Positions 33,464 through 39,408 of a stretch of DNA of 64,000 nucleotides are shown here, piece by piece. Both the position numbers and the translations under genes were made by a program. The first letter of the stretch is position 1; each line of letters starts with the position of its first letter. Below the pieces are notes generated by a model, which worked only from the letters and a program-made list of their open reading frames with translations, was not told where the DNA came from and did not search any database. The DNA is taken from NCBI GenBank assembly GCA_050248555.1, contig JBFWSC010000003.1:25724-89723 (forward strand), written 5' to 3'. This stretch comes from Kofleriaceae bacterium. GTDB lineage: Bacteria > Myxococcota_A > Polyangia > Haliangiales > Haliangiaceae.

Positions 33464-36400
33464 CTAGAACCGCGTGCCGTACCCCGGCTTGCCGCGCTCC
33501 AGCAGGTTCTTCGCCTGATAGACCTGGCTCATCCAGATGTCGTGCCACTTGCCCTTCGCGACCTGCTCGAGCAGCGCGTCGCCCTCGGCGGTGCGGCCGA
33601 GCGCGATCAGCGCCTGCGCCTTGCGGACGCGTGGCGTCGGGTTGGTCTGATCGATCACGATCGCTTGCTGCCAGTAGTCGAGCGCCTCGGCGACCTTGCC
33701 CTGCGCCTCGAACGACTGGGCGACCGTCATGTAGCCCGCGCCGCTCATCGGATCGCGCTCGATCACGCCGGAGAGCTGGCGCCACGCTTCGGCCTTGTTG
33801 CCGACCGCGAGCTGCAGCTCGCCGAGGATGCGATCGATGTCGGTGTTGCCCGGATCGATCGCGCGCCACTTGGCACCCCACATCATCGCGCGCTCGGTCG
33901 CGGCGACGCGCGCCGCGCCCGTGGACTCCATCGCGAGCTGCTTCGCGGTCGCGATGATCTGCGCCAGCTCGCCGCGCACCGTCGAGATCGAGACCGCCTC
34001 GTCGGCGGCGGCGGTCTGCGCGGCCTCGAGGTGCGCGAGCGCCTTGGCGGTGTGCCGCTGTTGCTGCGCGAACTGCGCCGCCAGCTTGTGGAGCGCGGCC
34101 GTGTGGTGGGTCTTGACCAGCTCGTCGACGAGGGACTCGGCGAGCTGCGCCATGCCCCGCGCGAGCGCGAAGTTGGCGACGTCGACCTTGCGCTCGATGT
34201 CGTCGCCGGCGAGCTCGACCGCGCGCGCGAACACGGCGTTCGCGTCGGCGGGCTGCGACTGGACCTGCGCGGCGAGCGCCATCACGTGCTCGAAGCTTCC
34301 ACCCGCGAGGACGCGGTCGCGCCAGCGACCCCACAACAGCTGCCAGCCCGCGTTACCGCGGCGCGACTGCTGGATCGCGTAGGCGCCGTTGCCGAGGAAC
34401 GGGGGAGCCGCGGTGAGATCGAGGTCGTCGATCATGAGCGCGATCATCTCGGCCGCCTGCTCGTATGCGCCGCGGTTGTACAGCGCGGTCGCGGCGTTCG
34501 AGCGCGCGACGTTCTTGAGGCGCCCGACGGCGACCGTGTTCCACGCCCGCGCGATGTCCGCGGGCTTGAGGTCGTAGCGGTTGCTCGTCATCGCCGCGCC
34601 GAGGATGCGGAACTGGAGCGCGCGCGTACCGAACGCGACGATCTTGTCGACGGCGGCGGCGCTCTTCGACGCCGCGAACAGCGCGGTGACCTCGCGGTGC
34701 TGCCACAGCGCGCCGAGCACGCCGGTGGTGACCTCTGGCTTCATGCGCTCCGGGCGGGGGCTCTTGCCGTACGCGCGACCCGCGATGAGGTAGCGCGCGA
34801 CCGGCGCGCCGGCGTGCGGTGCGAGCGCCTCCGCGAACTGCTTGTCCGTCGATGACGTCGCTATGCCGCCGCTCGCGAGCACGATGTCTCCGATCTCGAC
34901 GCCGCCGTTCTGGCGCAGCGCCTCGTAGATCGCGAACTGCGTCGCGCGGTCGCCCGTCGCTGCCACGCTCGCCAGGTGCTGGCGCTGCGCGCGCCGCCAC
35001 GGCTCGCTGCCCGCGGTCTCCTTCTTCACGCGCTCCGCCCAGTAGGCGGGCATCCGCGTCGGCAGCTCGACGACGGTGCGCTGCGCCGCCGCCGCTCCAT
35101 GCGCCCATGCGACCGAGTCGTCGATCGCCTGGCCGGTGAAGCCGACCGCCACGTCGCTACCCTGCATCTGCGCCGCGATCGGACCGATCGGGCCCCACGT
35201 CACGGACAGCAGCGTGTTGCCCTCACCGTCGCGGATCGCGACGAGGTGATGGTTCGCGTCGAGCTCGAGCTCGAGCACGACGCTCGCCTTGCCGCTCGCG
35301 TACGACGACAGCGTGATGGTGCGCGGGCCCTTCGTCTTCACCTCGAACCAGCGCGCGTAGTGCGACGGGTCGGCGATCCAGATCGGGAGGTACGCGAACG
35401 CGAGCGCGATGTCGTCGCTCGTGATCGGCCGCGTGACGTCGAGGCCGAGCTCCGCGTAGCGCCGCGTGAACGTCGCGCCGTCGAACGACGCGGTCTCGAG
35501 GAGGTCCGCGTCCGTCGTGCGGCGCCACCCGAAGCGCCCCGACGAATCGACGCCGATCTCGAGCTCGCCCCAGCGATACACGCCGCTCGGCAGCGCGCCG
35601 CGTGCCTTCTCGAGCAGCGCCTTGGCGGCGGGCTCGATCGGATGCACGAGCGCCGCCGCGGACTCCTCGAACTGCTCGCGCCAGAAGTCGCTCGCGTCGG
35701 GGAACAGCGCCGGGACGAACGCGCTGAGGTCGTCGAACGCCATGTCGGACGGGTACGTGAACCGCTGCGGCATCATCGGTCCCGCCAGCGCGCTCTCGCC
35801 GCCGATGTTCTTGTCGAACGCCCAGCGCGTCGCGCCGGTCTTGAGCTCCTCCGTCGTGAGGCGCACGCGGCGCTCGCCGCTCTCGAGCGGAGTGTCGATG
35901 TTCGCGCGCACGGATTGCTCCGCGCGATCGACCTTGCGCGCCTTCGCGATCGCGCCGCGGAAGTTCTGCTCCTCGTCACCGTCGTCGAGAGGAATCGTGA
36001 CGGCCTCCGCGATCGGCTGCTGCACCTGGAGGTCGAGCTGGCGCCGCGTCCGCGCGCCCGCAACGCGTCCGCCGCCACCCGCTCCGCGTCCGAAGCCCGC
36101 GCCCGAGCCGTGGCCGATGGTGCCGAAGCGGCCCGCGCCGAGCGTGATGCTGTTGTCGAGCCCGCCCCAGCCGCCGACGTCGCCGTTCGCGAATCCACCC
36201 GTGAAGTCCATGTTCGCGTACGAGTAGAAGATCTGCAGCGGCATGCGGAACAGCTCCGCGTCGTCGGTGACGTCGACCGGCTTGGTCTGCGCCATCGTGA
36301 CGATCGGGATCGTCGCGGGCATCGCGTACGGCGCCCACGTGTCGCCCTGCCCCTTGCGCACGCCGTACTTCGCGTACATCGCGTCGTTCTCGAGGACGAT

Positions 36401-38781: not shown

Positions 38782-39408
38782 CGAAACCTCCGCAAGGTTG
38801 GCGGACATGGTCGTCGCCAAGGTGGAAAACGTGTCGCGGAACGCTCGTCGCGCGCGGGCGAGGAGCGACTTGGTGGCGTCGACGGAGATGCCGAGCTCGG
38901 ACGCGAGCGTCTCGAGGGTCTCTCCATCGACGTACTTGCGCGTGAGCGCCGTCTTGTACTGCTCGGGCAGATGCGCGATGGCCATGTGGACGAGGTCGCG
39001 CGTTTCGGCGCGCTCGAGCACCTCGCCGGGCAGCGGACGCTCGGCCATCGCGGCGAACGTCTGCGCGAGCGTCGCGTCGATGCGCTCCCACGTCGATTGC
39101 AGCTCGTCGCTGCGCTTGTGCGCGCGCAGGTGATCGCGAATGACGTTGCGCGAGAGCACGGTCAGCCACGTGCCGACCGATCCGCGATTCGCGTCGTAGT
39201 CCGCCTGGCGCGAGAGCGCGATCGTGAACGTCTCCTGGACGATGTCCTCGGCCAGGGTGTGGTCGCGACCGACTCGATAGAACACGAACGCGTACAGGCC
39301 ATCGACGTGGGCGTCGTAGAACCTGCCGATCGCGTCCTTGTCACCGGCCTTCGCGGCGCGCAGATCGGCGCCGGGGCCTGTTCGAAAGAGGCGGGCGAGA
39401 AAGCTCAT
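38776..39408 (-). CDS. ECF-subfamily RNA polymerase sigma-70 factor.
   Basis: About 210 aa from Met MSFLARLF.... Region 2 (DAIGRFYDAHVDGLYAFVFYRVG...AEDIVQETF) and region 4 HTH (YKTALTRKYVDGETLETLASELGISVDATKSLLARARRAFR). The track's longer N-terminal extension is R-rich and unlikely to be real. Confidence 0.85.
   Translation of the reverse strand: MSFLARLFRTGPGADLRAAKAGDKDAIGRFYDAHVDGLYAFVFYRVGRDHTLAEDIVQETFTIALSRQADYDANRGSVGTWLTVLSRNVIRDHLRAHKRSDELQSTWERIDATLAQTFAAMAERPLPGEVLERAETRDLVHMAIAHLPEQYKTALTRKYVDGETLETLASELGISVDATKSLLARARRAFRDTFSTLATTMSANLAEVSQ

Follow-up and report, generated by a model that had tools for sequence, protein, structure and literature searches.

The window analysed here, a stretch of 64,000 nucleotides (64 kb) from contig JBFWSC010000003.1 of a Kofleriaceae bacterium (assembly GCA_050248555.1, forward-strand positions 25,724 to 89,723), contains a two-gene operon that lies entirely on the minus strand and encodes an extracytoplasmic function (ECF) sigma factor (39408..38776) and a single-pass membrane protein of 1,771 amino acids (38779..33464), proposed here as its anti-sigma factor or sigma regulator. 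We hold with fairly good confidence that this is an ECF sigma factor together with its cognate, membrane-spanning regulator of the FecR superfamily, in which the small C-terminal signalling subdomain usual in such proteins has been replaced by a periplasmic sensor of about 1,550 residues. The pair formed by the sigma factor and a protein combining FecR, VIT, VWA and tetratricopeptide repeat (TPR) domains is conserved across Kofleriaceae and related myxobacteria. All coordinates refer to the window, whose G+C content is about 70%.

Both genes begin with ATG, and as an earlier note on this DNA had reported, the start codon of the large open reading frame (MNESK...; 38779-38777) overlaps the TGA stop codon of the sigma gene (38778-38776), with the junction reading ATGA (38779-38776). 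The large frame has a G+C content at third codon positions (GC3) of 0.89, the value expected of a genuine gene in the host genome, and 407 relatives of its product were found among the 5.8 billion proteins searched; for these two reasons it is a real gene and not a chance open reading frame. Among the matches listed (the best 120 of the 407), most are 1,650-1,850 amino acids long, a few being truncated, and the Pfam domains are the same in nearly all of them, with source names that describe “VIT/VWA/FecR domain-containing” or “TPR repeat” proteins from metagenome-assembled genomes (MAGs) of Kofleriaceae, Polyangiales or “Deltaproteobacteria”. The full-length homologues, of which there are more than 400, all belong to Myxococcota and come from Kofleriaceae and Haliangiales MAGs, with Pseudenhygromyxa as the cultured case. 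A scan of one genome per GTDB species yielded 115 encoding stretches, the best of which was a 99% match on contig CAZUAR010000026.1 of an uncultured Kofleriaceae MAG. The architecture is thus unusual, as had been claimed, when set against the 317-residue FecR of Escherichia coli, but it is not rare in this clade and was probably glimpsed in 2021 as group ECF267. Within the library of papers searched, none describes FecR, VIT and VWA together.

The 210-residue sigma factor contains the sigma2 and sigma4 regions (Sigma70_r2, residues 31-99, E 2.8e-13; Sigma70_r4_2, residues 138-189, E 1.9e-12), as expected of an ECF (group IV) protein of about 200 amino acids, and matches NCBIfam TIGR02937 with 78.9 bits against a cutoff of 42.9. 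Its best NCBIfam and PDB matches are SigW-type, and its closest solved structure is SigW (5wuq). At the sigma2.2 position it carries LAED, and 63 of 65 orthologues share the acidic xAED motif. Loss of this motif makes ECF43 sigma factors kinase-dependent (PMC8999054). As the window sigma factor keeps xAED, it should be intrinsically active and need an inhibitor, unlike the kinase-activated ECF43 proteins.

By tblastn, each of the 71 loci that include the 5' end of the large gene has a sigma orthologue immediately upstream and on the same strand, and in nearly all of the 65 junctions read, the sigma stop codon overlaps the start of the large gene as ATGA or GTGA, occasionally as TGATG. The sigma factor is about 80% identical to its homologues, compared with about 58% for the large protein. 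Distant members of the family were collected through an exhaustive HMMER search using residues 921-1641 of the large protein as the query, and four of their loci were examined, those of a Myxococcota MAG (L080), of the cultured Nannocystaceae strain Pseudenhygromyxa sp. WMMC2535 (L084), and of family members P0257 and P0244 (the latter being L083). An ECF sigma gene lies directly upstream of the large gene in all four, and every other neighbour examined differs. The sigma factors of L080 and L084 share 54% and 48% identity with the window sigma factor, and the one preceding P0244 is much more divergent (32% identity in sigma4). Of the neighbourhood features examined, the sigma link alone is common to close and distant loci.

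The N-terminal ~45 residues of the large protein are strongly conserved (DVLExNVxTLLExGGExPxxxDxARxRIRxxL). Within them, residues 8-43 (VLEQNVSTLLESGGEAPKLTDDARARMRAQL; 38651..38758, minus strand) form a cytoplasmic motif, proposed here as a sigma-binding module, whose mean identity of 69% equals that of the FecR domain and stands against 22% and 14% in the flanking residues 44-54 and 78-92. AlphaFold2 (AF2) places two helices in the motif, at residues 9-19 and 29-43. An internal methionine, Met52, at which initiation would give a secreted protein with a signal peptide, is not conserved. As residues 8-43 are as conserved as the FecR domain and Met52 is not, the upstream ATG is the true start; the earlier note was prepared to abandon its reading if the start proved to lie far downstream of the transmembrane helix, and the start lies upstream of it. 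That helix (residues 55-77; 38549..38617, minus strand) is the sole hydrophobic stretch in the large protein and coincides with an AF2 helix at residues 58-75, in agreement with the single-pass protein of about 1,770 residues described previously. Lys and Arg flank it on the N-terminal side and Asp on the C-terminal side, and this charge distribution indicates an N-in, single-pass topology.

The motif persists in the most divergent members of the family. In two distant homologues, P0257 (PF13490, E 3e-5) and P0244, the same N-terminal slot holds a canonical zf-HC2 zinc-binding anti-sigma (ZAS) domain (HxxxCxxC); this motif is absent from the window protein, which does not class as ZAS-type. 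In P0244, the zf-HC2 domain goes together with the divergent sigma factor noted above, as expected if sigma factor and anti-sigma domain were exchanged together. FecR and VIT are kept in the five distant members tested, and VWA and TPR also score above threshold in the three that are of the motif type. The unbroken upstream linkage, the near-universal overlap, the four distant loci and the zf-HC2 domains of two homologues lend strong support to the sigma/anti-sigma pairing that had been suggested. Based on this genomic and comparative context, not on homology, the large protein very probably acts on this sigma factor as its cognate anti-sigma factor or regulator, and the two-helix motif may represent a new, minimal class of anti-sigma domain. 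The earlier claim of an N-terminal anti-sigma domain therefore stands in part: there is a conserved two-helix motif whose context supports the role, but it has no Pfam or NCBIfam anti-sigma match.

Beyond the membrane lies a periplasmic FecR-type beta domain (residues 93-198; 38186..38503, minus strand), modelled with a predicted local distance difference test score (pLDDT) of 84-93. Pfam PF04773 matches residues 95-170 with 37.8 bits against a cutoff of 24 (E 2.6e-9); absence of this domain is what the earlier note had named beforehand as fatal to its proposal. Sequence matches of the region in the PDB include 4m0n, a putative anti-sigma factor, and PupR (6ovk_R). In a BLASTP alignment, residues 135-171 of the window protein (FVVETKHGQIQVLGTRFLV...) pair with residues 168-204 of E. 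coli FecR (FRVLTRQGQLTALGTEFTV...), which places G148-T149 (38333..38338, minus strand) on FecR G181-T182. In FecR, G181-T182 is the site of the first, autoproteolytic cleavage, mapped by mass spectrometry and Edman degradation, and this autoproteolysis is proposed to proceed via an N-O acyl shift, as shown for FoxR (PMC12036975). Residues G148, T149 and F151 are invariant in an alignment of 45 homologues. A strict-pattern scan of the 176 full-length members found GT in 164 and GS in 3 (167/176), a relaxed scan found GT in 4 of the 9 misses, and the GT site is also present in ZAS-type and the most distant members. Solved relatives that do not cleave carry GA at the same position (4m0n) or have no Gly-Thr there (PupR). 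From these comparisons, G148|T149, which the earlier note does not mention, is predicted to be a FecR-type autoproteolysis site acting through an N-O acyl shift.

A highly conserved linker (residues 199-226) connects the FecR domain to the sensor region, for which AF2 models were generated from 45-sequence alignments (mean pLDDT 71 for residues 1-920 and 87.5 for residues 921-1771). All four Pfam domains of the large protein (FecR, VIT, VWA_3 and TPR_19) score above gathering thresholds, in line with the FecR, VIT, VWA and C-terminal TPR modules originally recognised. The VIT beta-sandwich (residues 227-460; 37400..38101, minus strand) is supported by Pfam PF08487 (residues 248-358, E 1e-20), by the AF2 model and by a Foldseek match to ITIH1, an inter-alpha-trypsin-inhibitor heavy chain (ITIH). 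It is followed by a VWA domain (residues 473-645; 36845..37363, minus strand) that matches VWA_3 (PF13768, residues 475-623, E 5e-11) as well as VWA_2 and is the most conserved domain of the protein, with 77% identity. The DxSxS noticed at first reading is part of a complete metal ion-dependent adhesion site (MIDAS), in which D479-x-S481-x-S483, T548 and D576 are invariant among the 45 homologues; DxSxS is found in 171 of the 176 full-length members.

The region after the VWA domain (residues 648-840; 36260..36838, minus strand) consists in the AF2 model of a beta-sandwich at residues 648-712 and helices at residues 723-784. Against the PDB, the top Foldseek match was ITIH1 6fpy (E 2e-27; 593 aligned columns, in a chain of 600 residues). 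As this match extends over ~590 columns, residues ~230-840 make up a complete ITIH-heavy-chain-like module that reaches beyond the two Pfam domains. The same region gives a partial match, over residues 380-806, to NCBIfam TIGR03788 (marine proteobacterial sortase target), with 117 bits against a cutoff of 551 and short of the full-length model. Two pairs of cysteines are conserved, C394/C397 in the VIT domain and C748/C759 in the post-VWA part, and would fit an oxidising compartment, namely the periplasm. From the invariant MIDAS and the ITIH-like fold, we infer that sensing may take place through metal-dependent adhesion.

The stretch of about 900 residues that had been left unassigned resolves into this post-VWA part and three further segments. 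A Gly-rich linker (residues 841-998; 35786..36259, minus strand) is disordered, with pLDDT below 50 in both models, and is only 21% identical and variable in length among homologues. In the distant member P0238 (2,214 aa), a sub-threshold STN match (residues 1152-1194, 24.5 bits against a cutoff of 28.4) falls in the region corresponding to this linker, and this weak match hints that some family members may recruit a FecA-type signalling fold. An alpha/beta domain follows (residues ~1000-1240; 35060..35782, minus strand), confidently modelled with 14 beta strands (pLDDT 84-97). It has no Pfam or PDB sequence match, TPR matches dominated both fold searches, and no relatives outside this architecture were found among 1.84 billion representative sequences: only 153 of these contain the region of residues 921-1641, all of them either proteins of 1,600-2,200 amino acids in which it occupies the same relative position or pieces of such proteins. 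The C-terminal segment (residues 1244-1763, ~520 aa; 33491..35050, minus strand) is modelled with high confidence as a TPR-type alpha solenoid forming a continuous superhelix, far longer than the single Pfam match within it (TPR_19, residues 1692-1741, E 2e-7).

The 107-bp intergenic region between the sigma gene and a divergent gene contains two conserved modules. Module B (CGACACCT-N13-TGACAC; 39417..39443, minus strand) lies 9 nt upstream of the sigma ATG, and 9-14 nt before the sigma start in Kofleriaceae. The 1.29 Mb of collected loci contain 70 matches to it, of which 66 are located shortly before the sigma gene, the spacer being 13 nt in every case. The same element precedes the sigma gene in L080 as CGATACCT-N13-TGACAT and in Pseudenhygromyxa (L084) as CGACACCT-N13-TGACAG, in both cases within unrelated surrounding sequence. 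This fixed spacing and position make module B the probable operon promoter, and it is possibly recognised by the sigma factor itself, which would amount to autoregulation. Module A (GACCAGTATCC-N5-GAAA(A)CGTTGC, here GACCAGTATCC-N5-GAAACCGTTGCC; 39480..39508, minus strand) is a conserved block near the divergent gene, at a fixed distance from its GTG start in Kofleriaceae loci. Read in the divergent sense it is GGCAAC-N18-GTC and could be an ECF-like promoter. Its interpretation as a SigW-like TGAAAC -35 element was rejected, as there is no conserved -10 element at a fixed distance. Modules A and B are different motifs, each occurs once in the window, and no second module B was found before the divergent gene or elsewhere in it. 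As the modules differ and neither recurs, the idea that an ECF promoter motif would also precede the divergent gene is unsupported.

The divergent gene (39516-40796, plus strand) encodes a Pro-rich membrane protein with a TonB-like N-terminus, made up of a transmembrane helix with an S-x3-H motif (LSAIVHVAL) followed by a Pro-rich spacer. A TonB C-terminal domain is lacking, Pfam and NCBIfam give no match, and the C-terminal domain of ~250 aa is an orphan. Of 47 Kofleriaceae loci, 20 have the gene, and the distant loci lack it; with this distribution, no family match and no homology to the divergent gene of L080, it was rejected as a conserved partner. Two genes are inserted between it and a kinase gene. 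The product of one (40913-42712, plus strand) has 599 aa, with four WXXGXW repeats and an IPT/TIG domain, and is confined to the closest relatives. The other (43006-45495, plus strand) encodes an 829-aa homologue of the major vault protein (MVP; MVP_shoulder E 9e-16, Vault_3 E 5e-9), and its stop codon abuts the kinase frame. Bacterial MVP homologues have been reported before (bioRxiv 10.1101/872010). A functional tie between the MVP homologue and the VIT-VWA protein was rejected, as the former accompanies the operon only in the 2-3 closest relatives.

The kinase (45496-46737, plus strand) is a Hanks-type Ser/Thr kinase (Pkinase E 2.5e-33). An orthologue (73% identity) lies divergently upstream in 30 of the 38 Kofleriaceae loci with enough flanking sequence, and in 18 of the 20 with at least 7.5 kb. 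On the other side of the operon, a DEAD-box/DUF3516 helicase (31261-33396, minus strand; 82% conserved) begins 67 nt downstream of the large gene and is syntenic in 38 of 48 Kofleriaceae loci, with other genes intervening in some. An intrinsic terminator was looked for between the large gene and the helicase and none was found, and the helicase may be read through from the sigma operon. The co-location of the helicase, the kinase and the Pro-rich protein may reflect clade-level synteny. At the far end of the window, an open reading frame of at least 1,434 codons (1-4302, minus strand) runs off the window end and has no Pfam match at E up to 1e-5; it lies beside a gene for a DUF4132 protein (4259-5335, minus strand).

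Taken together, these features suggest how the pair might operate. The two genes, whose overlap is observed, would be translated as a coupled pair, and the two-helix cytoplasmic motif (residues 8-43) would, judging from its context, hold the sigma factor at the membrane. The FecR domain, for which the motif and alignment are observed, would cleave itself at G148|T149 via an N-O acyl shift as in FecR and FoxR, giving a membrane fragment of residues 1-148 and a periplasmic fragment of 1,623 residues that would stay bound non-covalently, the large one shielding the short one. The sensor carried by the large fragment would comprise the ITIH-like VIT-VWA module with its MIDAS, the flexible linker, the orphan alpha/beta domain and the long TPR scaffold. 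An envelope ligand or partner binding or pulling at the MIDAS or TPR surfaces could then dislodge the large fragment; by analogy with FecR, Site-1 and RseP-type proteases would degrade the membrane fragment and free the sigma factor, which might transcribe its own operon from CGACACCT-N13-TGACAC. A bolder form of this mechanism, which we consider rather unlikely, is a force- or adhesion-gated envelope sensor comparable to Notch or the adhesion G protein-coupled receptors (GPCRs). Here the pre-cleaved FecR domain would serve as a non-covalent “fuse” and the MIDAS head would latch onto a ligand of the envelope, the matrix or prey; ligand engagement or a mechanical pull would strip off the 1,623-residue fragment and trigger intramembrane proteolysis, with the sigma factor held by the minimal, previously unclassified two-helix domain.

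Several observations weigh against the proposed regulator. The helices of the N-terminal motif are modelled with low confidence (pLDDT 41-74), residues 1-78 have no Pfam or NCBIfam match even at E up to 10 and do not class as a DUF4880/FecR_N-type domain, and a motif profile built from 30 diverse sequences found nothing relevant in the PDB; homology of the motif to a known anti-sigma domain was rejected on these empty searches. The large protein has no match to FecR_C or STN and thus lacks the C-terminal STN-like subdomain, and the signalling partner of FecR is missing, with no TonB-dependent transducer or receptor among the window open reading frames scanned. No FecI model is among the top NCBIfam or PDB matches of the sigma factor, which does not class with the FecI-like clade. 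Module B, read as a direct repeat of GACAC spaced by 21 bp, could instead be the site of a dimeric regulator. In most Kofleriaceae loci the Ser/Thr kinase is found in synteny, and actual control of the sigma factor could lie with it. For ECF267, those who drew up the ECF classification had doubts that the FecR-like neighbour acts on the sigma factor of the group (PMC7826278).

In one alternative, the large protein would be what the operon chiefly serves to produce, a periplasmic adhesin or scaffold (ITIH-like VIT-VWA plus TPR) anchored in the inner membrane; the sigma factor would drive its expression and would itself be controlled by something else. Bacterial VIT-VWA proteins are typically structural or surface proteins, such as the TIGR03788 sortase targets that residues 380-806 partially match, the N-terminal motif matches no anti-sigma family, and the FecR Pfam domain is also found outside anti-sigma factors. 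In addition, the public names of homologues refer to VIT/VWA/FecR domains or TPRs, and among the matches listed none of the names returned contains “anti-sigma”. A discrete cytoplasmic module at 69% conservation would, however, have no role in a pure adhesin, and distant homologues have a genuine zf-HC2 anti-sigma domain in its place; the family also keeps the FecR-type GT site, and the sigma link is what survives wide divergence when the rest of the neighbourhood does not. We therefore judge the cargo explanation improbable.

About equally improbable in our view is control of the sigma factor mainly by the Hanks-type kinase, with the large protein as an accessory or independent sensor. The recurrence of the kinase upstream of the Kofleriaceae operons speaks for it, and Casas-Pastor et al. 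place ECF267 among the kinase-associated groups while leaving the acting regulator open (PMC7826278). Against this, the distant loci L080 and L084 lack the kinase within 8 kb, it lies three genes and ~6 kb away from the sigma gene in the window, and the helicase and PanC are equally syntenic, so that its position may again be a matter of clade-level synteny; the sigma factor also keeps the acidic xAED, whose loss makes ECF43 kinase-dependent. Slightly less probable still is classical cell-surface signalling, in which a TonB-dependent outer-membrane transducer would be encoded elsewhere and the TPR and VWA parts would merely extend the reach of the regulator. The FecR domain with its GT site, the TonB-like N-terminus of the divergent neighbour and the sub-threshold STN match of P0238 speak for this reading, but the window protein has neither FecR_C nor STN, the sigma factor is not FecI-like, and no TonB-dependent receptor is encoded among the window open reading frames scanned or listed in the gene tables of five related loci (L001-L003, L080 and L084). 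The TonB-like neighbour itself lacks the TonB C-terminal domain, and its conservation does not extend to the distant loci.

Pairs of ECF sigma and anti-sigma factors are a major means of signalling in bacteria, and the sensing domains of most of them are not known. A cognate FecR-type regulator as proposed here would indicate that the self-cleaving core of FecR can be uncoupled from TonB-dependent iron signalling and combined with a VIT-VWA adhesion module that resembles those of eukaryotes. The family also brings sequence-level evidence to bear on whether ECF267 sigma factors are regulated by their FecR-like neighbour, a point on which the ECF classification did not decide. The G148|T149 site, the MIDAS residues, the candidate promoter and the cultured host Pseudenhygromyxa sp. 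WMMC2535 provide testable handles, and the family could illuminate how the abundant but uncultured and poorly studied Kofleriaceae sense their envelope or surroundings.

The closest points of comparison are the FecR, FoxR and PupR regulators of the E. coli FecIR and Pseudomonas FoxIR and PupIR systems. As in these, the gene of the window protein lies directly downstream of that of an ECF sigma factor, and the product is N-in and single-pass with a periplasmic PF04773 domain; its Gly-Thr is found at the exact position of the G181-T182 self-cleavage site of E. coli FecR. It differs from them in its size of 1,771 aa compared with 317 aa for E. coli FecR, in the added ITIH-like module, orphan domain and TPR solenoid, in the absence of a DUF4880/FecR_N-type or STN-like subdomain and of a nearby transducer, and in the SigW-like character of its sigma factor. 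Although FecR/FoxR-like in its core, the window system should not be filed as canonical cell-surface signalling. ECF267, which the literature mentions only in passing, was described as a small new group restricted to Proteobacteria, with Myxococcota then counted as Deltaproteobacteria (Casas-Pastor et al. 2021, PMC7826278). Its reported FecR-like protein with TPRs at position +1 and the protein kinase in its neighbourhood are both found in the window, and the window sigma factor probably belongs to this group, to which it was matched by published description only. The kinase is absent near distant members of the family, and the paper makes no mention of VIT, VWA, the size of the protein, the GT site or the N-terminal motif (PMC7826278).

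Other systems resemble the window protein in single parts. ITIH1 (6fpy), the best structural match, likewise has a VIT domain, then a VWA domain with a MIDAS and then a beta/helical region; the sequence identity is 12-13%, and the window protein is bacterial and tethered to the membrane through its FecR domain. No evidence was found in the window protein for the C-terminal transesterification chemistry of ITIH proteins. The DdvA/DdvS pair of Myxococcus xanthus also couples an ECF sigma factor to a single-pass anti-sigma factor of very large size with TPRs in its periplasmic part, and its signalling has been proposed to involve autoproteolysis followed by RseP cleavage (PMC11506125). DdvA differs in having a CHCC zinc three-helix anti-sigma domain and a periplasmic TPR-CHAT region (PMC11506125); it has no FecR, VIT or VWA, and the sensors are not homologous. 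The putative anti-sigma factors of ECF289 type, in which DUF3520 is fused to a VWA domain, set an earlier example of such a domain on the extracytoplasmic side (PMC7826278); judged by their published description, they belong to another ECF group and have no FecR, VIT or TPR. Judged by its sequence, the window system joins a FecR-type sigma regulator, predicted to be self-cleaving, to an ITIH-like MIDAS module, an orphan domain and a TPR scaffold, and pairs it with a non-FecI sigma factor, probably by way of the unclassified two-helix motif; it extends, and does not break, the ECF/anti-sigma paradigm.

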